From Candidatus Omnitrophota bacterium (GTDB lineage: Bacteria; Omnitrophota; Gorgyraeia; Zapsychrales; Fredricksoniimonadaceae), in NCBI GenBank assembly GCA_015233675.1, contig JADFXH010000012.1, forward strand, positions 1 to 57,711: a stretch of 57,711 nt of DNA, given 5' to 3'. Below the pieces are notes generated by a model. That model searched no databases. It had not been told where the DNA came from and saw nothing but the letters and a program-made list of their open reading frames with translations. Positions 11,053 through 41,775 of this stretch are shown here, piece by piece. Position 1 is the stretch's first letter, and every line of letters starts with the position of its first letter. The position numbers and the translations under genes are program-made.

Positions 11053-11208
11053 ACCCTGCGCTGTGCGACAGGATCTCGGATGTATTGAACCACAAAACAA
11101 TACTACGGGAGCCGGTCACCTGTTGGCGCGCCTTCGGCGGCCTCAAACTGGCACCCACTTGAGAATGATGGTTCTCATTTACACCAGATTCAACGGCAGA
11201 GGCGGGGT
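11053..11208 (+). ncRNA. ssrS: 6S RNA
   Basis: Terminal pairing accctgc/gcggggt and gctgt/acggc, ttgaacc/ggttc, motifs GGGAGC and GGCACCCAC; near ygfA-rny as is typical. Confidence 0.75.
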
Positions 11209-12542: not shown

Positions 12543-13094
12543 ATGATGGAGAAAGCCTCTTTAAGAAAGAATTATTTAAAGCTCCTTAAAGAGCAGAATA
12601 AAGAAGATCGTTTGCGTAAAAGCCGTCTGATTGCAGAGCAATTTTGGAAATTGCCTGCCATTCAAAAGGCTGAAAGTATTATGTTTTATGTATCCATGCC
12701 AGGTGAGGTGGATACCTTAGCGATGATTGACAAGGCAATTTTTTCCGGAAAACGGGTAGCTTTACCCATTGTTGAAAAAAATCAAAGGAAGTTAATCCCC
12801 ACAGTAATTTCATCTATGGAAGACGCACATAAGGGCACATATGGTATTGCCGAACCTCAGTATGATCCTGATAAAGAGCTTGATTTAAAGGACCTTGACG
12901 TGGTCGTCGTTCCTGGTCTGGCTTTTGACAGGCTTCATAATCGCTTGGGCAGGGGGGCTGGTTATTACGACCGGTTTTTAAGCATACTTCCACAGACTGT
13001 AACTACTGTCGGGCTCGCTTTTGATTTTCAACTCACCGATTGCCTTCCTACTGAGGCGCACGATATGCGCCTTAATCAAATCATCGCAGGGTAA
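12543..13094 (+). CDS. ygfA: 5-formyltetrahydrofolate cyclo-ligase
   Basis: GIAEP, DVVVVPGLAFDR..NRLGRGAGYYDRFL, PTEAHD. Confidence 0.92.
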   Translation: MMEKASLRKNYLKLLKEQNKEDRLRKSRLIAEQFWKLPAIQKAESIMFYVSMPGEVDTLAMIDKAIFSGKRVALPIVEKNQRKLIPTVISSMEDAHKGTYGIAEPQYDPDKELDLKDLDVVVVPGLAFDRLHNRLGRGAGYYDRFLSILPQTVTTVGLAFDFQLTDCLPTEAHDMRLNQIIAG

Positions 13095-17897: not shown

Positions 17898-17971
17898 TGC
17901 CTTGTCGTCTAATGGTAGGACATGAGATTCTGGATCTCAGTATCATGGTTCGAGTCCATGCGAGGCAACCA
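17898..17971 (+). tRNA. tRNA-Gln(CTG), integration target
   Basis: Acceptor TGCCTTG/CGAGGCA, tgaga-ttCTGga-tctca, TTCGA, CCA. Confidence 0.93.
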
Positions 17972-19438
17972 ATTTGGACAACCCTTCATTTTTGCTAAGA
18001 AAATGTAGGGTTTTTTGTATGCGGCAGTTATAGTTACGTCAAAAAGGGTATAGTTCGAGGCTAATTTTTTTAGGACAATAGCCTTTTCTTCGTGATTTGC
18101 CCTAACATACTGTGGGTACAACAAGTTTGTTAGTTCGAGGGTTTTAACGCCGTCTTCGTAAAAATTAGGGTTAATCTTTTGAGCCTCCACAATTTGGCTG
18201 GCTAAGTCTAGTAAGAGCGTTTTATATTCCGACTCTTTTGATATAAAGACCTCCTCAGCAACTCCACCATCGTATTTGTCGTCATAAAGCCGGTTAAGGC
18301 GATCCTTTACCTTACTGTGCTGGGTTTGAAGCGATTTAAGACGGTTGTCGTGCGCTAGGGACAGGTTTTTACGGTCAAATTCAAGCCCCTCTTTAATCCA
18401 TGAGGCCATGTCTTCGGTAATGATTACCTGCTTAACGGGTTCTTCAAAGAGTTGGGCTAAACGATTCTCTGGGTAATATCCTTTTCCTTCGTGTCTGCCT
18501 TTTGAAAAAGTGCAGTGATAATAAGTATAACGATTATTATTTGGTTTACGCTTCTCTTCCCCCAAGACTTTGCATCCACAATCACCGCAAACCAGAAGAT
18601 TATTAAAGGCAAACTCTTTACGATTGGCTGAGGGATGAAACTTGCCAGTTAAAATTTGTTGGATACGATCAAATAGGGGTTTGGAAATTAAGGGTTCGTG
18701 ACTGCCTTGATAGAGCTTCCCGTGCCAATTAAAGATGCCATAATAAAATGAGTTGTTAAGGATATAGCTCAGGGTGCTTTTGCGGATAGGGTTTCCACGG
18801 GGAGACCGGAAACCATCTTTGTTTAGAATATCTGCGACCATTTGTATTGAATACGTGCCAGAAGCAAAAAGGCCAAAGGCTTTGCGGAGGTGTTCAAAAC
18901 GCTCAGTGTCGATTTCTAATCTTCGGGTTTCCCTATTGTTTTTATAGCCTAGGGGAGCTGTGGCAGGGTATAAACCTTGCTCAGCTTTCTCAACCATTCC
19001 CATTCGAGTTTTGCGAGAAATGTCATTAGACATTTTTTTGGCTACAGCTACTTCAATGTCAAGCATGAAGAGATCATCAGGAGTCGAATCTCTATTGTAA
19101 ATCTTGTTCGAGCGGGAAAAGTGAATGGTTTTATTATGATGCTGAACTAGGTCATAGATTTTGAGCTTATCAAAATCATTACGGGTCATCCGATCAAGAA
19201 TATCAAATATGATGTGCTCAACTTCGGGGTGGGCTTTGGCATAGTCGATCATTTGATTAAAGGCCACACGGTCTTTTTTACGATCCCAAGCGGATTCAGA
19301 AACCTTCCATTGTTTGACTATACTAAAGCCTTTGCGCTGGGCATATTCATGCCCCAGCTTTTCTTGAGCATCAAGGGAATATCCCTCCTTTTCTTGCTCT
19401 TTACTGGATACTCGGACATATAAAAGGGCAGTCTTCAT
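17909..19438 (-). CDS. Large serine recombinase; last codons run antisense through tRNA-Gln
   Basis: YVRVSSKEQ catalytic motif, DRMTRN, APLGY, zinc ribbon CGDCG...YYHC, coiled coil; ends WLPRMDSNHDTEIQNLMSYH. Confidence 0.93.
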   Translation of the reverse strand: MKTALLYVRVSSKEQEKEGYSLDAQEKLGHEYAQRKGFSIVKQWKVSESAWDRKKDRVAFNQMIDYAKAHPEVEHIIFDILDRMTRNDFDKLKIYDLVQHHNKTIHFSRSNKIYNRDSTPDDLFMLDIEVAVAKKMSNDISRKTRMGMVEKAEQGLYPATAPLGYKNNRETRRLEIDTERFEHLRKAFGLFASGTYSIQMVADILNKDGFRSPRGNPIRKSTLSYILNNSFYYGIFNWHGKLYQGSHEPLISKPLFDRIQQILTGKFHPSANRKEFAFNNLLVCGDCGCKVLGEEKRKPNNNRYTYYHCTFSKGRHEGKGYYPENRLAQLFEEPVKQVIITEDMASWIKEGLEFDRKNLSLAHDNRLKSLQTQHSKVKDRLNRLYDDKYDGGVAEEVFISKESEYKTLLLDLASQIVEAQKINPNFYEDGVKTLELTNLLYPQYVRANHEEKAIVLKKLASNYTLFDVTITAAYKKPYIFLAKMKGCPNWLPRMDSNHDTEIQNLMSYH

Positions 19439-19611
19439 TTATTTTTTAGCAACTTCTCTATGTGGTAAGTTTGTATTTTGTTTGGTTGCGATTTTCCATT
19501 CAACCATCGGTTGACGGTAGAGAAGGCAACATTAAGTTTTTCAGCAAGCTCTTCCTGGGAAATTTTATTTTCTAATCTGTAGGTTTCTAGGTGGTCAATT
19601 AGATTTGTCAT
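19435..19611 (-). CDS. XRE-family HTH protein (58 aa, not in the ORF track)
   Basis: MTNLIDHLETYRLENKISQEELAEKLNVAFSTVNRWLNGKSQP; ATGA overlap with the recombinase start. Confidence 0.85.
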   Translation of the reverse strand: MTNLIDHLETYRLENKISQEELAEKLNVAFSTVNRWLNGKSQPNKIQTYHIEKLLKNK

Positions 19612-19654
19612 GGTTTAATCCTTTCTTGCAGAATATAGCGTTTAGTTTTAACGG

Positions 19655-20743
19655 TCAAGTTCTATTTTTAATGAGTTCACTAACCCTCTGAGCGATCTGT
19701 TCTGTCTGTTCCTCCTGTCTTGGTCTATTAAGTAAATTTCTTATTATCTCACCCTGACGATATTCCTCTACATATCCATAGCTAGAGAAAGTTGTTGAAA
19801 CATGGTCATGACCTAAGTTTTGACTCCACGCTTTAAAGTCTTCGGGGGTCTTGCAGAGCGTTTCCCCCAGACGGACAAGCGTTTTGCGAAACAAATGGGG
19901 AGAGGAATATTCTAGCCCAGTCTTTTCAAAGGCTTCTTTAAATATTCCCCGCATTTGATTTGCCGATTGCCAGCACACAGGCTCTATCCCAACACTTGTA
20001 AAGCAGTTGTTTTTATCTAAGCCAATCTTTGTGCGGGGGAATAAGGGGTCATTGATTCCATAGAGTTTTTCTTTAATCAGATAGTTTGCCCAATCCTTGA
20101 CAATTACCTTGATGTCCTCACCAACGGGGAAGAAATAGGTATAAATCGTTTTGCTGAATTTGGTATTTACCTCACCGCCGATTTGTTCAACAAGCTCATC
20201 TTCAAGTTTAAGGTGCTTTAACTTTAGGGAGACTATTGCGCTGTCTCTTATACAGGTAAGAAAGGTAAAGGCCACGATTGCACGGTTACGGCGTTCTATG
20301 TCCGTATTGGCTGGCATGGAAAAGATAACTTGCCTGATTTGCTCTGGTGTCGGCACGGCTTCCCTTTTGGGGGTTTGAGCGATTCTTGTATCCTTTTCGG
20401 ATAGATTGAAGTATTCAATCTCACGAATATCAATGTGGCGGAAGCCTTTTTGGTAAGCCAGCCATTTAAAGAAGTCTTTTAAGTGGCGAAGGGTTGAAAA
20501 AAGCGTAGATTTGCTTAAAGGTTCATGGGACAAGACAGCTTTTGTTTCGGCCAGATGTTTCTTAAAGGCAATCGCCTTTTGTTTGTTAAAAGATTTAAAG
20601 TCTTGAAATTTGGTATAAATTTCATAGCGGGTCATGGCTTGGCGGATATTATCAATGGAGTTCTGGCTTTTCTGGTTGGCTTCTTTTTGCCATTCAAAAT
20701 AAATACGCTTAACTCGCTCGTTGGAGGGGTTGAATTTTGTCAT
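19655..20743 (-). CDS. Tyrosine recombinase
   Basis: Catalytic set R (CIRDSA), K (TKFSK), HxxR (PHLFRK), LGH, Y (SSYG). Confidence 0.9.
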   Translation of the reverse strand: MTKFNPSNERVKRIYFEWQKEANQKSQNSIDNIRQAMTRYEIYTKFQDFKSFNKQKAIAFKKHLAETKAVLSHEPLSKSTLFSTLRHLKDFFKWLAYQKGFRHIDIREIEYFNLSEKDTRIAQTPKREAVPTPEQIRQVIFSMPANTDIERRNRAIVAFTFLTCIRDSAIVSLKLKHLKLEDELVEQIGGEVNTKFSKTIYTYFFPVGEDIKVIVKDWANYLIKEKLYGINDPLFPRTKIGLDKNNCFTSVGIEPVCWQSANQMRGIFKEAFEKTGLEYSSPHLFRKTLVRLGETLCKTPEDFKAWSQNLGHDHVSTTFSSYGYVEEYRQGEIIRNLLNRPRQEEQTEQIAQRVSELIKNRT

Positions 20744-21228
20744 GTTCCTGTCACCTCATTCTTGTCAGTGTTATAGATAGGGGAATTAGACCCAGATAAG
20801 TGTTCATGGTGTATTTTTTGAACCACAAAAATTTTGTGCAATTCATCTAATTTTTTAGGGGAGGATATTTTGTTAAGAGGGGTATTACATTGAACACAAA
20901 GGCCAACTATCATAAGGCGTTTTTCATTTAGGAATTTAATATCAACCACGTTTTCCCAACTGGTGCGGGGTACTCTGCACTTCATACAAAAGAACTCATT
21001 TGGCTGGCAATGCCTTTTTCGGCCACCTTGCCGTTTATCCAGAAATTCTTTTAGATGGAATCCCATAACAAAGAATGGCTTGAGATCATCAATACGGGGC
21101 AATCCTTGCGTGTACCACTCATGAACGGTTCTCTTGTGGACGCCGAATAAGGTCACTATGTCCTGGGTGGAATAGGAAAGGGTCAATTTAATGTGGTGCG
21201 TGTTGTAATTTCTTTTTCTCTTCGGCAT
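20740..21228 (-). CDS. MerR/excisionase-like HTH plus C4 zinc ribbon protein
   Basis: YSTQDIVTLFGVHKRTVHEWYTQGLP; CMKC...CVQC; overlaps the tyrosine recombinase start. Confidence 0.7.
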   Translation of the reverse strand: MPKRKRNYNTHHIKLTLSYSTQDIVTLFGVHKRTVHEWYTQGLPRIDDLKPFFVMGFHLKEFLDKRQGGRKRHCQPNEFFCMKCRVPRTSWENVVDIKFLNEKRLMIVGLCVQCNTPLNKISSPKKLDELHKIFVVQKIHHEHLSGSNSPIYNTDKNEVTGT

Positions 21229-21229
21229 T

Positions 21230-21583
21230 TTATAGCTCGAATATCCTGTCGGTTGCTATGATTTTGTGGGCGAGTTTTTGTTCAGCCTTTTTAATCCAGT
21301 TGCCGTTTAAATCACGTCGGCGTTTCCTTTTAGTTCCTAGAGCCAGGATTTTGGGTAAATCAGCTTTAGGGAAGTCCAGTAGCCATAGAGGGTCATCGGT
21401 GCTCAGTTCGTGCTCTATTAGGCTTTTAGATTTAACTAGGGAGGCAAATTTTGATGACCATGTTGATAGTCTAAAATGAGTTTTACAAAGATCAGGAGGG
21501 GAGGGGTAGATTTCCCCATAGTCAATTAAACAAAAAAGGTCTCCAAGCGCATCCTTCCAAACCAAATGTTGAGGAATTTTCAT
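21230..21583 (-). CDS. Hypothetical protein
   Basis: 117 aa, tightly packed in the island operon. Confidence 0.6.
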   Translation of the reverse strand: MKIPQHLVWKDALGDLFCLIDYGEIYPSPPDLCKTHFRLSTWSSKFASLVKSKSLIEHELSTDDPLWLLDFPKADLPKILALGTKRKRRRDLNGNWIKKAEQKLAHKIIATDRIFEL

Positions 21584-21759
21584 GGGATGGTTTCCCCGTG
21601 ATCTTTTTGGTTGGATTTTTTCAACTCAAGCAGGTAGGAATAAAGGCCAATTACATTGTCTGCAATCTCTTGGGCATCCGCCAATGTTAATGGCTCGGGA
21701 CTGTACGGTTGCCAGAGCTTAATCGTCTTTTCAAGGTATTCTTTGGGGTATTTTGCCAT
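21580..21759 (-). CDS. Small hypothetical helical protein
   Basis: MAKYPKEYLEKTIKLWQPYSPEPLTLADAQEIADNV; 4-nt overlap with the next gene; start 21759 preferred. Confidence 0.65.
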   Translation of the reverse strand: MAKYPKEYLEKTIKLWQPYSPEPLTLADAQEIADNVIGLYSYLLELKKSNQKDHGETIP

Positions 21760-21911
21760 ATAATCACGTTGGTTGAAATACAACGCCTTTAACCTATATG
21801 GCGACAAGTCGCAGTTTTCCCAAAGAATTTTTAGTTTGAATTTAAAAATTGATAAAGATTTTTAGAGGGGGCGAAGGGTTTGTCACGTGACAAATCGATT
21901 TGTCACGCTTG

Positions 21912-22886
21912 TTAAGAGTTAAATTGGATTCGGCAGGTGTAAGCGCCTTCTGATTTGTAGGGGAAGAAAGCGTCTTCGTTAATTTGGAAGTATTTTTGTA
22001 GGGTCTCAGAAAGTCGTTGTTTCTTCTTTTTTATTGTATCGTTGGCTTGAGGGCTATCCCAAGAAATTTGGCCGCTTTCTTTGGACAGGTATTCTAACAG
22101 CGACCACTGAGCATTAGGGGAAAGAGTTCGCTTGTCTTCAAAACCCATTTCTTTGTAATGTGCCACATATTTCTCAGTGCCGATTTTGATTTCGACATTA
22201 TTGCTATCTTTAAACGTCAGGGTAATGTTTTCCCATTTTGTCGGCTTAAAAGACTGGGAGAATTTTGTTGGCGGATCATTGGAAAGGTTTTTCGTCTCAA
22301 GAAGATCGGTTCGTTGTGATCGTGTTTTATAGGCTATAGCTACTTCCTTTTTGAAGTCGGTAAACTCTTCGATATTAACAATTATTGCGATTGTATCGAG
22401 TTCGGGGACGATTTTGGCGTAAGAAATAACAAGCTCCCTCTCTAAAAAGTCCAGAGCGTCTTTACGGAAGTTCGCCATAATTCTTGAATTTCCTATAATA
22501 TGGCTACTCATCAGGGGGAATTTATCAATATTAAGCGAATCAATTTTTATTGTAACCTTTTCAGAGGGGTTCATTTGTAGCTGGTCGTTAATGTCGGTTA
22601 TCAAATTGTATATTTTTTCAAGGTTTAAAGGGCTTAAATCATTCAAACTGGTATCTCTCTGAAAAACATATCCGGCATACCAATTATCAAAAGAATCAAG
22701 TATTGTTAGATGGAAACGAAGAGGGTCTTGACGGACGCCCACTGATATAGCGTTGGGTCTGCTGGGGGGATGGTAGTCTCTGGGGGAGTGGTCTTTTAAA
22801 ACTTTTTCTGCTAGTTCCAGCCAATATATGATGCTCTCTATATGCTCAAGAGGGATTTGTTGCAATGTAGGCAAGTGTCTATCCAA
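21912..22886 (-). CDS. Hypothetical protein with a C-terminal wHTH-like DNA-binding region
   Basis: QWSLLEYLSKESGQISW...KKKKQRLSETLQKYF; the frame stays open upstream to 23084. Confidence 0.65.
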   Translation of the reverse strand: MDRHLPTLQQIPLEHIESIIYWLELAEKVLKDHSPRDYHPPSRPNAISVGVRQDPLRFHLTILDSFDNWYAGYVFQRDTSLNDLSPLNLEKIYNLITDINDQLQMNPSEKVTIKIDSLNIDKFPLMSSHIIGNSRIMANFRKDALDFLERELVISYAKIVPELDTIAIIVNIEEFTDFKKEVAIAYKTRSQRTDLLETKNLSNDPPTKFSQSFKPTKWENITLTFKDSNNVEIKIGTEKYVAHYKEMGFEDKRTLSPNAQWSLLEYLSKESGQISWDSPQANDTIKKKKQRLSETLQKYFQINEDAFFPYKSEGAYTCRIQFNS

Positions 22887-23224
22887 TAAAATACGAACTC
22901 CCTCAGATTTGCCGTGTAAAGCTGTGTCAAGTAGGCTAGGGGCGGGGATTTCAACTTGAAAAGCAAGAGCAAGAAGATCAGGCTCTGGCGGAGTGATCGG
23001 ATTGTTTTTATATTCTTGCCGTATTGCCTGAATTACCAGACTGAACTCATTCTTAGAATAGCTTTTCGTAGTCTTCTCCCTTCTTTATATTGATTTCCAT
23101 ATTATAGCAAAGTATAATGCCTCACAATAAGATTTAGTTACTGAACCGGAGCAAAAGGAGGGTAATAACCCAAGCCATAAGGCTTAAAACACATATATAG
23201 GAGCACCGCTTTTCCTATAAAAAA

Positions 23225-23309
23225 CCAACTTGTCAGAGGAAAAGACTGTGTCCCGACGCACTTCCGTGCGTTCGGGGCAGGCGGTCTTTCGCTTTTACTG
23301 ACAAGTTGG
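23225..23309 (+). other. 85-nt multi-stem hairpin in island A
   Basis: ccaacttgtcag/ctgacaagttgg perfect 12 bp, aaagac/gtcttt, tgtccc/ggggca, gacgcac-ttcc-gtgcgtt. Confidence 0.75.
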
Positions 23310-23330
23310 GCGATGAGACTTAAAAATGCT

Positions 23331-23375
23331 TGCCCCTTTTTTATTTTTTAGGGGAAGCCTAAATAAAAAGGGGCA
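23331..23375 (+). promoter_or_regulatory. Hairpin pairing over the ribosome-binding region of the 323-aa gene
   Basis: tgcccctttttt-attt / aaataaaaaggggca ends immediately before GTG 23376. Confidence 0.55.
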
Positions 23376-24347
23376 GTGATGAACAAACTTGTCTTTTTAA
23401 CCCTTTCAGTTATAACCTCTTTTCTTTTTTTGAACAAACCCCTCTTTGCTTCCGATCAAGAAATAGCCGACCAAATTCAAGGTTTAAGGGATGATTTACG
23501 GCAACAAGCAGTGGATGACGAACAAGAAAAACAAAGAGAGGAATCAAATCAACGCCTAAAAAAGGCTATTGATGATTGGGGAGCTAAGGAAAAAGCAAAA
23601 ATTGATTTAGAAATTCAAAAGGAAAGATCAATAGAAGACCAACAAGATCAAGAGGCTATAAAAAATGCTGAAATAAATGAAAAGGCTCAAACAGAAGGGT
23701 ATATAGCCGGAAAGAAAAAAGAATGTGAGGATCATGCTGTTAAGCTGGGCGGAACCCCAAAAGAAGCCGAAGATGATTGTAGGGATGTAGTGGCCTCCAT
23801 AAGAGGTTTAATGGAATCGAAATCCCCCAAAGAGATTGAAGCAGATGAAAAACAAAAAGAACTCGAGGCTTCACTGAGCGATCTCGATAATCAGTTGGCC
23901 AGTGGAAGAATTTCACAAAGTGAACATGACGGTAAAGAAAAAATGCTACTTGATGATAATAGGAAATGGCAACGGTCTGAAAGTGAATCGTTGACCACGG
24001 CTACCAATAAATTGAAAGAAGATATAGCAGACTCAAAAGCCAGGAGGTTAAATAATTCTTTAAAAAGTACCGACAAGTTGTTGTCCGTTGGAAAGGTTAC
24101 CCAAACTGAGCATGATGTACTAAAAGAAACATTGCTTGCCCCCAACATTCCAGAGGCTGATAGGGAAGCCGTATATGATTTGGTGGGAGCGGTAAATAGA
24201 TATTTGGAATTGGGATGGAAAGAAACGAAGGCGACACAAGCATTGAAGTCAAGAATACTAGACATTGAGGTATCCTCTGGAAAGATAACTAAAGGCCAAT
24301 TTGACGAAGGGAAGATGGAATTGCTCGGGGGTCACGTTACTAAATGA
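23376..24347 (+). CDS. Secreted coiled-coil protein with three SHOCT-like repeats
   Basis: Signal peptide ...PLFA; SGRISQSEHDGKEKMLL, VGKVTQTEHDVLKETLL, SGKITKGQFDEGKMELL. Confidence 0.7.
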   Translation: MMNKLVFLTLSVITSFLFLNKPLFASDQEIADQIQGLRDDLRQQAVDDEQEKQREESNQRLKKAIDDWGAKEKAKIDLEIQKERSIEDQQDQEAIKNAEINEKAQTEGYIAGKKKECEDHAVKLGGTPKEAEDDCRDVVASIRGLMESKSPKEIEADEKQKELEASLSDLDNQLASGRISQSEHDGKEKMLLDDNRKWQRSESESLTTATNKLKEDIADSKARRLNNSLKSTDKLLSVGKVTQTEHDVLKETLLAPNIPEADREAVYDLVGAVNRYLELGWKETKATQALKSRILDIEVSSGKITKGQFDEGKMELLGGHVTK

Positions 24348-24838
24348 GACTAATCTTTTTGATAATGAAAATATTCCGAGTGTGCAATAAATGCAAGTCT
24401 AGGTATTTGCTATTTCATTTAAAGTCGGATTGTAAATTTGCAATAGAGAATTTTCAAGCCCTTAGAGACTTGCTTGTCAAAGCCGCTATTGACGGTCATT
24501 TGGGGGAATCCAATAAAGCCATGTTTGATCTGAGGCTTTCTAAGATAGCTTTCCCATCAGAACAGTTAGATAGAAAAACTAAAGTTTTTGAAGGCACAAG
24601 ATTTTCTAGCGTTCCATTTTTAACAATTCTTTTAATGGTTACCATTGGAACAGCATTGGGTCAAGATAAAGGTGGCTTGATGCAAGGGATAGGAGTGTTC
24701 TTTATTTTTATATGGTTTGTGTTCCTGGGGCGTGGTGGTTTTAATGTGCTTTTTAAACAAATTACCCTTTATGATTTAATGAAGAGGTATAAGTTCAAGG
24801 CAAAAGAAGAGAATTTGAGTTATGAACGTCGCTTTTGA
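24344..24838 (+). CDS. Hypothetical membrane protein
   Basis: Two hydrophobic segments; 4-nt overlap with the upstream gene. Confidence 0.6.
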   Translation: MRLIFLIMKIFRVCNKCKSRYLLFHLKSDCKFAIENFQALRDLLVKAAIDGHLGESNKAMFDLRLSKIAFPSEQLDRKTKVFEGTRFSSVPFLTILLMVTIGTALGQDKGGLMQGIGVFFIFIWFVFLGRGGFNVLFKQITLYDLMKRYKFKAKEENLSYERRF

Positions 24839-25250
24839 ATTTATTTTGATTAACCTGGTGATCTTCGGATCACTTTTTCTGTTTTTACGTTGGGTATGTA
24901 CTCAATCAGCTACATGGAGAAACGTAACGGCTTTTGTTGTTGAGCTGGGATCGGCCTATTCTGCCAGCTTTGTTTTTGATATGCTGGTACAAGCAATCAC
25001 CGGCAGATTGCAGTTTGATAATGTTGTTGCGCCGGTTTGTACATGGTCTGGCATAGCCATTGCTTGTCATTTTTTTGCTAGCGGAACAGCGGTATCAAAA
25101 AAGCCCCTCTATCTTGCCTACCTCATTCTTGGGCTAATAGCTACAGCCGCATGTTTTATTCATACATATAATCTAATAGTCGGCGTGTCTCTATTGGTAA
25201 TCGCTGGGGTTATTGCGTTGATCCCAAGAAATAACAGTCCCCGAATATAA
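24822..25250 (+). CDS. Hypothetical membrane protein
   Basis: About five hydrophobic segments. Confidence 0.6.
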   Translation: MNVAFEFILINLVIFGSLFLFLRWVCTQSATWRNVTAFVVELGSAYSASFVFDMLVQAITGRLQFDNVVAPVCTWSGIAIACHFFASGTAVSKKPLYLAYLILGLIATAACFIHTYNLIVGVSLLVIAGVIALIPRNNSPRI

Positions 25251-25327
25251 ATTATGGATTGATTTTTGAGCGAAATCTGCTTAAACTTACGTTAAGCCGC
25301 TTGGATCAGTTCGTGAGACTCGGTGAA

Positions 25328-25363
25328 AAGCCAGTTGCGAAACTCGTCCAAATGAGGCAACCA
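25328..25363. repeat. attR of island A / left junction of island B
   Basis: GAGGCAACCA identical to the tRNA-Gln 3' end; 25328-25351 matches 27280-27303 at 23/24. Confidence 0.8.
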
Positions 25364-25585
25364 CGTTGGACAAGAGGCCCTTTTGGCGAATATGCTGAAG
25401 GGCTTTTTGTATGTGAGGCAAGGGGTTGCGTCATTAAGGATAACAGCCTTTTCATGGGCGGTTGCCGCAAGATACTGGGAATACAGTAAGTTCATCAGTT
25501 ATTTTACCGTCCATCCTGTCATCAAACAATTTATTGATCCTGTGGGCTGACATTGTCATGTTGTGTTTGAAGCGCGGCAAACACA
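25364..25585 (-). pseudogene. Remnant of a second large serine recombinase C-terminus
   Basis: Fragments LQTQHDNV, RINKLFDDRMDG, NLLYSQY..HEKAVIL, YKKPFSIFAK..CPTWLP align with LQTQHSKV, RLNRLYDDKYDG, NLLYPQY..EEKAIVL, YKKPYIFLAK..CPNWLP. Confidence 0.85.
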
Positions 25586-25668
25586 GAATTAACAAATTTG
25601 ATAGCAGGGAGTAAGAAGTATACTTAACCTAAATTTGGGCACAAATCATTTTTTTACGGAGGAATCCT

Positions 25669-26432
25669 ATGGATGTGACGACAAAGTGGAAAGGCCTCTC
25701 TATTCAAGAAATGCTGGGGAACTCGTGGCGGCTATATCTATAGGGGATCTTTTTTTACAGCCTCAAGCGACAGCCACGAATGGATCGTTCACGCAATCAA
25801 TCCTGATATTTGTTGTATCTACTATCGTGGGCGTAATTTTGACGATATCAGAGTTATATATGTGTTTACTGGTCAGATCGTTAGAACAAAATGACGGGAC
25901 TTCCTGGCAGGATCTGCTGGATACCTCATTAAATAAGATTGGACCGATGATTGGATCGTATATCCCTGTATTTTTCTTTTTCTTGTTGTTTTTTCTGCCC
26001 GGCATAGCTGTTGTTGTATTTCTTCATCCCGATGAATCTACGCAGAAAATTGTGACGACTGGCTGGATGTGGTGCGGAACGGCATATTTTAGTTATAAGT
26101 ACGCTCTTTTACCTACAGTCGTAGCTTACGAGAAACCGGTGTTCATGTCCTACCTAAAGAGAAATGCACAGCTAATCAAGGGATCGTTCTATGATTTTTT
26201 TGGTGCTTATCTGGCGCTGGTCCTGGTTTTGTCCCCTGTCTTTGCTATTTCATTCTTTTCGAGCAGCATCCCTCAGCCATATCAAATGATACTGTCAATA
26301 GTTTCCATTGTCCTCTGGGTTCCTTTAACGCCATTTTGTTTTCACTATTTATATTTTGTATATACCGAGTTGATCCAGAGGGAAAGCAGCCTTCGTGGCA
26401 TTGCACCAGGGAGCGTAGCGCCGACACAATAG
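25669..26432 (+). pseudogene. Multi-pass membrane protein, probably broken near the 5' end
   Basis: GGAGG + ATG 25669 reads MDVTTKWKGLSIQEMLGNSWRLYL then TAG at 25741; the hydrophobic body is in another frame (track ORF 25635..26432). Confidence 0.55.
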
Positions 26433-26708
26433 TAGTTCAAATGCGCTGGCATTGGTCCATACATTAGCCCGGCGAGAGAAAATGTTTATTTACAAATAAT
26501 CAGTTGTCCGTTTTGAAACACTGGTGGATATTATAACTAACATACCTGCCACGCCTCTTGGCTTCGGTCAATGCGCATTTTGGGCAGGTTTTATTGATCT
26601 ACTCCCCGTTTGATGCCTTGTCAAAGGTTTGGTCGGGGTTGTTTTTTTGATTGCACAAGATGAGGGTTTGATATATCCTTTAAGTAAATAGACATTAGGA
26701 GGCTCACT

Positions 26709-26933
26709 ATGCGCAATGAAATTTCTATATCCAATATTTTGAAGCTGGATGTCTCCGAAAGAATCCAGCTGGTGGAAGATGTTTGGGATAGCGTTGCTGC
26801 TGTCCCCGAAGCTATTCCCTTGACAGACAAACAGACAAAAGAGCTGGATCAACGCTTGGCTGCCTACCACAGCAATCCATCAGCCGGATCTCCCTGGAAA
26901 GAAGTCAAACAGAGAATATTGTCCAGAAAATGA
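26709..26933 (+). CDS. Addiction module antitoxin (TIGR02574-like)
   Basis: LKLDVSERIQLVEDVWDSV...ELDQRLAAY...GSPWKEVKQRI; AGGAGG RBS. Confidence 0.88.
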   Translation: MRNEISISNILKLDVSERIQLVEDVWDSVAAVPEAIPLTDKQTKELDQRLAAYHSNPSAGSPWKEVKQRILSRK

Positions 26934-27229
26934 AATACGATCTCATTATTCGACCGGAAGCTGAGCAGGATATGCAAGGCGCTTTTGGCTGGTACGAAGA
27001 TCGTGTTTCAGGGCTTGGCCGAGAGTTTCTGCGTTGTGTGGACGCATCTATAGCTCAAATTAACCGTTCTCCCAAAACACATCCAGTCATATATCAGGAT
27101 ATTCGCAGGACATTGACCCGTCGTTTTCCTTTTGGGGTTTTCTATATTGTAGTTGGTCAAAAGATTATTGTGCTTGCTGTCCTTCATGCACGCAGGGATC
27201 CAAGCATGTGGAAAAGAAGGAAGAATTAA
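26930..27229 (+). CDS. ParE/RelE-family toxin
   Basis: IIRPEAEQDM..A..WYE....GLG.EF, RRFPFGVFY, VLAVLHARRDP; ATGA overlap with the antitoxin. Confidence 0.9.
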   Translation: MKYDLIIRPEAEQDMQGAFGWYEDRVSGLGREFLRCVDASIAQINRSPKTHPVIYQDIRRTLTRRFPFGVFYIVVGQKIIVLAVLHARRDPSMWKRRKN

Positions 27230-27279
27230 CAAGCAGTAAGAAGCTCTGTGGACATGAACTCTTGGGACTCAGGCGAGTC

Positions 27280-27314
27280 AAGCCAGTTGCAAAACTCGTC
27301 CAACAGAGCCAACT
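27280..27314. repeat. attR-like end of island B
   Basis: aagccagttgcaaaactcgtccaa plus gagccaact; the minus strand reads LDEFCNWLDSPESQEFMSTELLTAC*. Confidence 0.7.
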
Positions 27315-27330
27315 TTAACAGTTTTATTGG

Positions 27331-40254: not shown

Positions 40255-40821
40255 TTGATGGAAGATATTAACAAAGATATATTGATCAGGGCGGCTCAAG
40301 GAGATATACAGGCCTTTGAGGATGTTTATAAAGCAAGCAGTAGTTTTGTTTATAATGTTGCTTTCAGGGTCGTTAATAATAGGGAAGACGCTTTAGAGGT
40401 GTCCCAGGAAGTCTTTATGATCATCTATCACAAACTCAAAAATTTTCGTTTTGAGTCATCATTTAAAACCTGGGTTTACAGAATTACAGCCAATAGCGCT
40501 ATTAATTTTGCCAAGAAAAATGCCAGGAAAAAAACAGTGCCGTTTGAAGAATGTTTTGGTGAAGGCGCCGTTGAAAGCGAAGTCAAGGCACATATGGACC
40601 AGGAACATCAGGCCAGTCTGGTTGAAAACTTATTGGGAGAACTTAATGCTGACCAAAGGGCTTGTGTGGTCTTGCGCGATATTCAAGGGTTAAGCTATGA
40701 GGAAATTGCACAAGCGTTAAATATTAATATCAATACGGTGCGTTCAAGATTGAAAAGGGCGCGCGAGAAATTTATGAGTTTAAGAAAGAAGATGGATTAT
40801 GAAAAAGTGCGATCAATTTAA
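40255..40821 (+). CDS. ECF RNA polymerase sigma factor
   Basis: DALEVSQEVF, SSFKTWVYRITAN, LSYEEIAQAL, TVRSRLKRAR. Confidence 0.92.
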   Translation: MMEDINKDILIRAAQGDIQAFEDVYKASSSFVYNVAFRVVNNREDALEVSQEVFMIIYHKLKNFRFESSFKTWVYRITANSAINFAKKNARKKTVPFEECFGEGAVESEVKAHMDQEHQASLVENLLGELNADQRACVVLRDIQGLSYEEIAQALNININTVRSRLKRAREKFMSLRKKMDYEKVRSI

Positions 40822-41284
40822 AAGCCAGATCCTTACGGATTATATGGACAAAGAATTAAATAAAATTTCTATCGAAGAAATAGAAAGCCATTTATTGGAT
40901 TGCGGCGATTGCCGTGTTTTTTTTAAGGAAGTTAAAAATAGAACAGTATTGCCTTTTCAACAGGCAATGCGCCAGCCGGTTCCTGAGGAGCTTTGGGATT
41001 TGGTCAAGCAAAACATAGAACATTCAAATCATGCGACGGTTCATCTTGAGAATTTCATCGGAAAATTAAAAGGATTGATTACTTTTCCGAGAATGATCCC
41101 TGCTTTTGCCAGTCTTATACTAATGCTTTTAGCCGGTTCCGTAGCTCTAAACACAATTCAGACACAGCGCTACCAGGAAAAAGACCAGGGAGAATTTTTG
41201 GTTGCACTGCTGAGTTCAACAGGTTCTCAGGCGTTTTCGGACAGCAGCGATTTAAAAACGCCCATTGAGCATTATTTTCTTTAA
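40799..41284 (+). CDS. Zinc-binding anti-sigma factor
   Basis: DYMD...SHLLDCGDC (HxxxCxxC) plus one TM helix. Confidence 0.85.
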   Translation: MKKCDQFKSQILTDYMDKELNKISIEEIESHLLDCGDCRVFFKEVKNRTVLPFQQAMRQPVPEELWDLVKQNIEHSNHATVHLENFIGKLKGLITFPRMIPAFASLILMLLAGSVALNTIQTQRYQEKDQGEFLVALLSSTGSQAFSDSSDLKTPIEHYFL

Positions 41285-41301
41285 ACTATGAGGGTATTTT
41301 T

Positions 41302-41775
41302 ATGAAAAAATTAAGAAATGCACTACTGGGAATTATAGGGGTGTATGTTTTTGCGACGTTGTCTTTGGCCCAAGCTCAGGATGTCCAAGGCCCCTTCAAG
41401 GCACATTCGGGCCAAGGAATTCAGGAGCTTTACAGCAAGCTTAATTTAACAGATGCCCAAAAGCAGCAGCTGGAAACGAATAAACAGCAGCATCGGGCAA
41501 GGATGGAAAAAGCCCGCCAGGAAATGAAAACGGATAAAGAGGCGCTTCACGGGGAATTAATGAAGCCCCAGCTGGACATGGCCAGGGTCAAGGCAATTCA
41601 TAATCAAATTAAAAGCATTCAATCCGGGATGGAAGACGATAAACTAAGTTCAATTCTTACGGTCAGAGCGATTTTGACACCGGAGCAATTTTCAAACTTT
41701 GTAACCTTGATGCATAAACATAAACAAACTCATGATCAGGGATCAGCAGGCCGCCAGGAAAATGAAGCTAGATAA
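41302..41775 (+). CDS. Spy/CpxP-family periplasmic protein
   Basis: Signal peptide; LNLTDAQKQQL and ILTPEQF motifs. Confidence 0.85.
   Translation: MKKLRNALLGIIGVYVFATLSLAQAQDVQGPFKAHSGQGIQELYSKLNLTDAQKQQLETNKQQHRARMEKARQEMKTDKEALHGELMKPQLDMARVKAIHNQIKSIQSGMEDDKLSSILTVRAILTPEQFSNFVTLMHKHKQTHDQGSAGRQENEAR

Follow-up and report, generated by a model that had tools for sequence, protein, structure and literature searches.

A tRNA-Gln island of an Omnitrophota bacterium pairs a large serine recombinase with a conserved tyrosine recombinase module

What is the role of a second recombinase in a small genomic island that already encodes an integrase of another family? The question is raised by a locus in a window of 57,711 nucleotides (nt) from a Candidatus Omnitrophota bacterium (contig JADFXH010000012.1; the window is the whole stretch of DNA analysed here), where a large serine recombinase (LSR) and a tyrosine recombinase (YR) are encoded side by side next to a tRNA-Gln gene. 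Small islands that sit at tRNA genes and are devoid of transfer genes provide a major, little understood path for gene flow and are among the main carriers of anti-phage systems, and this window contains an intact minimal example from a phylum with almost no characterised mobile elements. The analysis showed that the recombinase pairing is genuine and inherited and is part of a much wider pattern. The YR and the product of the gene directly upstream, p162, form a conserved module, which is exposed here in hundreds of loci; its proteins are ~50% identical between phyla, and its DNA motif hardly varies. The reading that we favour, and consider moderately probable, is that of an LSR-driven tRNA island in which p162-YR would serve as a second recombination system at an adjacent predicted site.

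An island inserted in the 3' end of tRNA-Gln

The features that define the island and the recombinase pair are as follows.

17898-17971, plus strand: tRNA-Gln(CTG), the integration target; its 3' 18 nt (17954-17971) are the core of the left attachment site, attL (ARAGORN; Rfam tRNA, 59 bits)
17909-19438, minus strand: LSR, 509 amino acids (aa), with Resolvase, Recombinase and Zn_ribbon_recom domains (Pfam; phrog_95, E 3.4e-79, residues 1-470)
19435-19611, minus strand: XRE-type helix-turn-helix (HTH) protein, 58 aa, ATGA-coupled to the LSR (HTH_3, 3.8e-11)
19655-20743, minus strand: YR, 362 aa, simple Xer-like build of a core-binding and a catalytic domain (PF00589)
20740-21228, minus strand: p162, a Xis/MerR/TerS-type HTH followed by a Cys-rich zinc-ribbon domain, the conserved partner of the YR (alignment, model, synteny)
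25292-25345, minus strand: P arm of the island, encoding an alternative 17-residue LSR tail (translation; 88% repeat to 27280-27313)
25346-25363, no strand assigned: attR core, a degenerate version of the 3' end of tRNA-Gln (repeat search, alignment)
25343-25507, minus strand: C-terminal remnant of a related LSR of older origin, covering residues 433-496 with 47% identity and one stop
25364-27315, no strand assigned: decayed older island that retains genes for a 265-aa membrane protein and a ParE toxin-antitoxin pair; a third degenerate att copy marks its end

The mobile island spans 17972-25363 (~7.4 kb), is intact and is inserted in the 3' end of the tRNA-Gln(CTG) gene. The stretch at 17954-18021, which comprises the tRNA 3' end and a terminator-like run, recurs at 25346-25413 with 72% identity. 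These att repeats make three plus-strand genes at 23376-25250 part of the island. An earlier note on this DNA had taken the seven co-oriented minus-strand genes at 17909-22886 as the whole element. The genes, their named domains and the ATGA overlaps are confirmed by the coordinates of the open reading frames (ORFs), Pfam, PHROGs, NCBIfam and the structural models. However, the end at 22886 is wrong, because the att repeats extend the island to 25363. An element with 70% identity occupies the same tRNA in a congener of the window's genome (G010, the L011 record).

The LSR is of the integrase type, with a Resolvase catalytic domain that has the RVS catalytic motif at residues 9-11, a recombinase domain and a zinc beta-ribbon. 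Its ORF runs antisense through the tRNA-Gln gene (17898-17971), and the C-terminal ~20 residues are thus translated from tRNA sequence. The 3' end of the LSR gene likewise overlaps tRNA-Gln, Asn or Arg in the related loci L011, L012, L093 and L147; in L095 the LSR match stops 18 nt short of tRNA-Asp. The LSR alone would integrate into, and excise from, the tRNA 3' end, with the crossover predicted to lie inside the 3' end of its own gene. The alternative 17-residue tail encoded at 25292-25345 is in frame with the C terminus of the LSR remnant. Such a tail is expected in the excised circle if the crossover falls within the tRNA-derived core. Beyond the island, the 34 nt at 25328-25361 are repeated at 27280-27313 with 88% identity. 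Accretion of the tRNA-proximal region, with an older decayed copy at 25364-27315, is thus supported.

None of the ten island ORFs was assigned to a capsid, terminase, conjugation or replication family by Pfam, PHROGs, NCBIfam or PADLOC. The sole match of an Rfam scan is the tRNA, and PADLOC reported nothing beyond one weak match of p162 to mad1 (E 0.0024). The evidence thus supports a small integrative island that targets a tRNA and is without any recognisable machinery for transfer. The earlier statement that the element lacks capsid, conjugation and replication genes stands for capsid and conjugation, of which none was found. For replication the absence is less certain, in view of a winged-helix domain in the island protein p324 and a Phage_rep_O match in L012 (both described below). 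In comparison with phage satellites, namely phage-inducible chromosomal islands (PICI), P4-like elements and phage-inducible chromosomal minimalist islands (PICMI), the island has no PHROG structural, packaging or primase match, and no AlpA was found in the window. Such satellites are recognised by genes for packaging or capsid redirection, or by a primase-replicase, alongside int and alpA. The satellite label given earlier is unsupported, since no packaging, capsid or primase gene was found.

The recombinase pairing and the partner of the YR

The gene order p75-p162-YR-(XRE)-LSR-tRNA, in which p75 is a small gene further upstream, recurs in L011/L091/L190, L012, L093, L095, L098, L111 and L147, with the XRE gene placed between the YR and the LSR in L012, L093, L095, L098 and L111. 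In a maximum-likelihood tree of 146 YRs, the YRs of these LSR loci form one clade with a support of 0.93. The same clade takes in L092, whose flank is too short to show an LSR, and a phage contig that is considered below. The recurring order and the single YR clade indicate that the recombinase pairing is inherited as a unit, while the tRNA target of the LSR and the cargo change. Between L098 and L111 the p162-YR-XRE block has 83% DNA identity and the LSR 91%, and unrelated cargo lies exactly between XRE and LSR. The boundaries of this cargo swap showed no shared site. The L098 cargo in this slot is a Type III restriction-modification pair, and the same slot of L147 holds a Dcm/HpaII pair.

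The occurrence of p162-YR with many different integrases and the discrete edges of its homology blocks would be compatible with an independent element nested in the LSR island. However, no direct repeats flank the YR block at 19612-22886, and the GC content is even along the island. ATGA overlaps couple XRE to LSR, p162 to YR and p75 to the next gene, p117, as seen from both coordinates and sequence; p117 and p162 are one base apart, and the YR block is 43 nt from XRE-LSR. Together with the same order in eight other LSR loci and the one YR clade, these features indicate that the YR is not a separate insertion, and we regard a nested element as scarcely credible. Thus, the earlier placement of both recombinases in one element holds; a tyrosine recombinase module with its own att sites, which the earlier note had named as the opposing case, was not found.

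The YR itself is, as judged from its sequence, a simple Xer-like tyrosine recombinase. The catalytic set R166, K195, H283, R286, H312 and Y322 is invariant in 27 sequences. Its homologues contain PF13495 or PF02899 plus PF00589 only, the N terminus being a SAM-like core-binding domain, and no arm-binding domain is present. The best NCBIfam matches are XerA, XerC and XerD, all far below the cut-offs. This domain build is like that of Xer, Cre or the integron integrases and unlike that of the arm-binding phage integrases. A total of 6335 database homologues were found, with 45-60% identity in Proteobacteria, Acidobacteria, Nitrospirota and others; the closest are 92% and 90% identical. No PDB sequence match was obtained, and no relatives were found in 50,697 phage records. 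Among 2.9 million viral contigs the single-protein query found none and a profile query 15 only. A Klebsiella-labelled YR copy used as query gave no match in E. coli genomes.

The gene upstream of the YR encodes p162, the N terminus of which is HTH_17-like, and p162 has no family match in Pfam, PHROGs or NCBIfam. Cysteines C74, C81, C84 and C111 are invariant and C114 is nearly so (37 sequences). The p162 model (predicted local distance difference test, pLDDT, 84.8) matches MerR-superfamily HTH domains at Z 4.5-7.6, including small terminases, excisionases (Pukovnik Xis, TorI, GIsul2 Xis, RdfS) and MerR regulators. In the model, the likeness to the small-terminase DNA-binding domain is confined to the general MerR-type fold. 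The genomic contexts were examined at 80 genome and 80 metagenome YR loci. Among the genome loci, 62/80 have a p162 homologue immediately upstream of the YR homologue and 3/80 have an LSR homologue nearby; the metagenome counts are 60/80 and 6/80, respectively. As p162 stands next to the YR in ~120 loci, almost all of them free of an LSR, p162 is the partner of the YR. The earlier note had proposed p162 as the directionality factor of the LSR. The main ground for this assignment is thereby removed and it is unsupported, though p162 could still have such a role.

That proposal formed part of a broader one, in which the island is a tycheposon-like or satellite element that relies on vesicles or a helper phage and the YR is an "extra" recombinase. 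In the available part of their description (bioRxiv 10.1101/2020.12.28.424599), tycheposons are small cargo elements at tRNA 3' ends, with partial-tRNA flanks, island accretion and a tyrosine or rarely a large serine integrase, and without conjugation genes. The definition in the same part includes shared mobility and replication hallmark genes (primase, helicase, polymerase) and an inward-facing integrase. Most tycheposons have a tyrosine recombinase of a lineage that is specific to them. The window island is similar in having its integrase at one end by the tRNA, partial tRNA repeats at both ends (17954, 25346), tandem accretion and cargo, all of which fit the island-building model given there. 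The lack of detected transfer genes (Pfam, PHROGs, NCBIfam) and the likeness of the p162 HTH to excisionases and small-terminase domains agree with the proposal as well. However, the ten island ORFs contain no primase, helicase or polymerase family in Pfam, PHROGs or NCBIfam, the winged helix of p324 being ambiguous, and the LSR faces outward, transcribed toward and into the tRNA. Measured against that part of the definition, membership in the tycheposons is unsupported on both points. In addition, the p162-YR core is not among the hallmark genes named there, and the host belongs to the Omnitrophota rather than to the marine picocyanobacteria. The association of p162 with LSR-free YR loci and the near absence of YR relatives from the viral collections also speak against the proposal, which we consider improbable.

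The wider family of the module and the motif beside the YR gene

In other phyla the module is found with an integrase of another type. AlpA (PF05930, E 1e-22) is encoded just upstream of p162 in 50/80 loci, and a P4-type tyrosine integrase lies within 7 kb in 43/80 loci, often by a tRNA. This arrangement, AlpA-p162-YR with a P4-type tyrosine integrase near a tRNA, occurs in Proteobacteria, Acidobacteria and Nitrospirota, and restriction-modification genes are common as cargo. A Ruegeria conchae plasmid carries the cargo-free core: an integrase, two hypothetical genes, AlpA, the HTH protein and the YR. Of the 43 loci whose flanks both extend over at least 8 kb, 32 have a second recombinase, which lies within ~3.1 kb of the YR in 26. 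The island ends are readable in L056 and L014: each end has a tRNA 3' core and tandem arm-type repeats, the P4-type integrase lying at the end with the tRNA and AlpA-p162-YR at the opposite one. The tandem TGGGGGCA repeats lie ~100 bp from the tRNA core at both ends (L056:1102-1137 and 11117-11142; L014:862-881 and 12630-12649). They occur in ~32 loci and probably serve the P4-type integrases as arm-type sites. Copies of TGGGGGCA downstream of some YRs were considered as YR sites and rejected, as they are arm-type repeats of the other integrase's att region.

The window element is the LSR version of this island design, with p75 in the slot of AlpA. As the same module occurs with a P4-type integrase elsewhere, the tRNA integrase is an exchangeable part and p162-YR is the conserved core. 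The module is present in 4/401 sampled Omnitrophota genomes (E 1e-30), the other three copies being only 36-38% identical, a rarity that fits horizontal acquisition.

Two described classes of island come close to this design. The I23/I44/I55-class defence islands at tRNA or tmRNA genes carry intY and alpA and no autonomous transfer genes, and they need a helper phage (PMC12595487). They resemble the proteobacterial relatives of the module in the integrase by a tRNA-type gene, AlpA, the direct-repeat ends and the restriction-modification cargo. However, their core (YqaJ, RadC, an inovirus Gp2-like protein) lacks a second tyrosine recombinase with an HTH/zinc-ribbon partner, and the window element differs further from them in using an LSR and having no AlpA (PMC12595487). 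Pipolins are integrative and non-conjugative, exchange integrases between lineages, carry defence cargo and often have two recombinases, either IntSXT and IntP2 with an excisionase or an LSR and a small serine recombinase (PMC11551731). They are defined by a primer-independent PolB, whereas no polymerase family was matched by any island ORF, and their second recombinase comes from other families than the island YR (PMC11551731).

In 131/163 loci the YR start is preceded at a distance of 31-33 nt by a 13-nt motif, TAAACAGTGACTT, which is exact in 60 of them, against a background of 0.01 per 80 nt. The motif encodes the C terminus of p162 in 62 loci. It is also kept in 38 loci in which no p162-length ORF (at least 100 codons) runs through it; the p162 stop lies just upstream of the motif in some of these 38 loci, and others have no p162 gene. 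The AT-rich codons of the motif are retained even in GC-rich genomes. Its retention where it is not coding and its AT-rich codons in GC-rich genomes indicate a constraint on the nucleic acid and not on the protein. An RNA hairpin that would hide the ribosome-binding site was considered and rejected, since RNAalifold predicts no pairs.

When the islands were compared, their DNA homology blocks were seen repeatedly to stop 56-61 nt ahead of the YR start. A 1,249-bp block is present with 100% identity at two sites with unrelated flanks in a single complete gammaproteobacterial chromosome (L028:9944-11192 and L029:9944-11192). The block consists of the YR gene, 57 nt of upstream and 97 nt of downstream sequence, and p162 is absent from one of the sites. 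These alignments suggest that the YR gene may move as a unit. Taken together, the motif, the block edges and the duplicated YR block suggest a cis-acting recombination site beside the gene.

The xerS/difSL, Cre/loxP and plasmid resolution systems are recombinase-plus-adjacent-site modules, and one site per element is what resolution systems such as Cre/loxP and Xer/dif need. The island is similar to them in having a simple tyrosine recombinase without an arm-binding domain and one conserved site beside the gene. In comparison with xerS/difSL and Cre/loxP, the motif is a candidate site with no evident dyad symmetry, and the module resides on mobile islands and has a dedicated HTH/zinc-ribbon partner. 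One candidate site per element favours the resolution of multimers or tandem copies. In the favoured reading, p162-YR would therefore act at a single site next to its own gene, most likely resolving multimers or tandem copies and swapping modules between related islands as a by-product. The island lineage itself would be LSR-driven, with various tRNA targets, and would hold in one operon a much older and far more widespread p162-YR module.

Several observations weigh against this reading. The window carries only a diverged counterpart of the motif, with 8/13 bases, at 20762-20774 on the minus strand, and no second motif copy or partner site was found within 10 kb of any locus. The fixed distance of the motif to the start codon would fit a promoter or an operator equally well. 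Recombination by the YR is a prediction, and with a replication function only possible for the island, multimers may never form. The block edges could come from homologous recombination within a conserved stretch. Furthermore, a 34-kb phage contig (L195, IMG/VR) with portal, large terminase, primase and Erf genes encodes a YR homologue of the LSR-type clade with 49% identity. This homologue occupies the integrase position of a lysogeny module by a Cro/CI-like gene, with neither p162 nor the motif in the stretch read. No other recombinase is present in 11/43 of the well-flanked loci. The phage-contig YR and these 11 loci fit the role of a true integrase.

The YR and p162 could accordingly be a second true integrase/excisionase pair with a chromosomal or episomal target of its own, for example on a helper replicon. 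The duplication of the 1,249-bp YR-only unit at an unrelated site would agree with this role, as would the excisionase-type fold predicted for p162. However, the YR homologues lack an arm-binding domain, every island with readable ends is bounded by the tRNA repeats of the other integrase, and no locus is flanked by a duplicated motif. A second integrase of this kind seems rather unlikely to us.

An integrase, a DNA-cleaving enzyme and an adjacent cis site also make up the layout of an integrative mobilisable element, and TcpM, a tyrosine-recombinase-like relaxase, provides a precedent. The YR might then be a relaxase-like or other DNA-processing enzyme for the helper-conjugative mobilisation of the excised circle, with the motif as a counterpart of the transfer origin, oriT. 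Integrative mobilisable elements need a relaxase and an oriT, and no relaxase family was detected with Pfam, PHROGs or NCBIfam. The full recombinase catalytic set of the YR is invariant, pointing to ordinary recombinase chemistry, and no conjugation genes were seen in any locus examined. Mobilisation by the YR is very improbable.

The favoured reading of a second recombination system has a wider form, which we put forward as a tentative possibility. In this form, p162-YR and its fixed 13-nt site would constitute an undescribed cross-phylum recombination system, present on tRNA-integrating islands of any integrase class, that acts at this site to exchange whole integrase and cargo modules between islands or between tandem or multimeric copies. 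The literature and libraries searched contain no description of the p162-YR module or its motif. Shuffling of integrase and cargo between islands by the module would offer a testable mechanism for the assembly and mosaicism of defence islands, and such exchange would explain how an LSR could replace a P4-type integrase. If the module is only a second integrase or a resolvase, it is a useful, ordinary addition to the catalogue of dual-recombinase islands.

Two YR copies with 82% DNA identity were also observed at the two ends of one 55-kb IMG/VR contig (L203 and L204); after one of them comes a Type III restriction-modification pair like that of L098.

Operon control, remaining genes and surroundings

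The remaining features of the island are the following.

21230-21583, minus strand: p117, no family match
21580-21807, minus strand: p75, no family match; in the slot held by AlpA in tyrosine-integrase islands
21878-21906, no strand assigned: operator-like palindrome and a third half-site, overlapping a -35-like hexamer ahead of p75
21912-22886, minus strand: p324, lineage-restricted, with a central winged-helix domain (residues 78-201); 12 homologues, no family match
23376-25250, plus strand: cargo genes for p323 (signal peptide, coiled-coil-rich), p164 and p142 (both hydrophobic), no family

The palindrome ahead of p75 is perfect over 20 nt, and 3/5 of the half-site matches in the window cluster there, against 0.85 expected in the whole window. 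The relatives have different palindromes at the same position, as expected of element-specific operators. The XRE protein may repress the operon at this palindrome. A small XRE gene 63-70% identical to that of the island was observed directly upstream of the extracytoplasmic function (ECF) sigma factor gene in island-free relatives (L183:7324-7500, L184:10636-10785, L185:9559-9729, L189:4992-5123), in the opposite orientation to the tRNA. The island XRE could be a capture from the host, or the gene of the relatives could be a relic of an old element.

All homologues of p75 that were found belong to loci of the LSR-type clade. A search of 400 other genomes from the phylum gave no p117; its one paralogue in the home genome (38% identity) immediately precedes the tyrosine recombinases in a second LSR element. 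As directionality factor of the LSR, p75 or p117 would be better candidates than p162.

The second LSR element is unrelated, lies on contig C26 (188208-194282, L207) and has no tRNA nearby. Its order is an 87-aa protein, a 149-aa protein with a sub-threshold Rep ORF2/G2P match, the p117 paralogue, two short tyrosine recombinases, two ORFs and a 641-aa LSR. The pairing of serine and tyrosine recombinases thus occurs twice in this genome.

Structural comparisons of the p324 model (pLDDT 77.6) showed that RepA WH1, Cdc6/ORC and PadR/MarR folds tie at Z 7.0-7.6, within the noise range of the tool. In L012, the p324 homologue is preceded by the protein with the Phage_rep_O match, which is weak and sub-threshold. 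On the model, p324 may have a role in replication. Just upstream of p323, at 23226-23310, a perfect 12-nt inverted repeat with arms ~60 nt apart surrounds a GC-rich hairpin. No Rfam family matches this structure, a possible leader or small RNA.

The gene upstream of tRNA-Gln and the tRNA itself are conserved in 7 congeneric or confamilial genomes. An ECF-sigma operon follows the tRNA after 165-550 bp in 2/7 of these relatives and lies at 40255 in the window, which indicates that ~22 kb after the window tRNA are inserted or variable. In congeners, this ECF-sigma/anti-sigma/LTXXQ operon (40255-41775 in the window) stands almost directly after tRNA-Gln. The variable stretch of the window at 17972-40200 also holds a metY-cysK sulfur operon, an Rrf2 regulator and a glycosyl hydrolase. 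The contig of L011/L190 was placed in the genus of the window, and its public title, "uncultured Planctomycetales bacterium", is probably a mislabel. Six further LSR paralogues (22-33% identity) were found on contigs C1, C2, C25 and C26 of the 2.1-Mb, 65% complete genome, the serine integrase load of which is unusually high.

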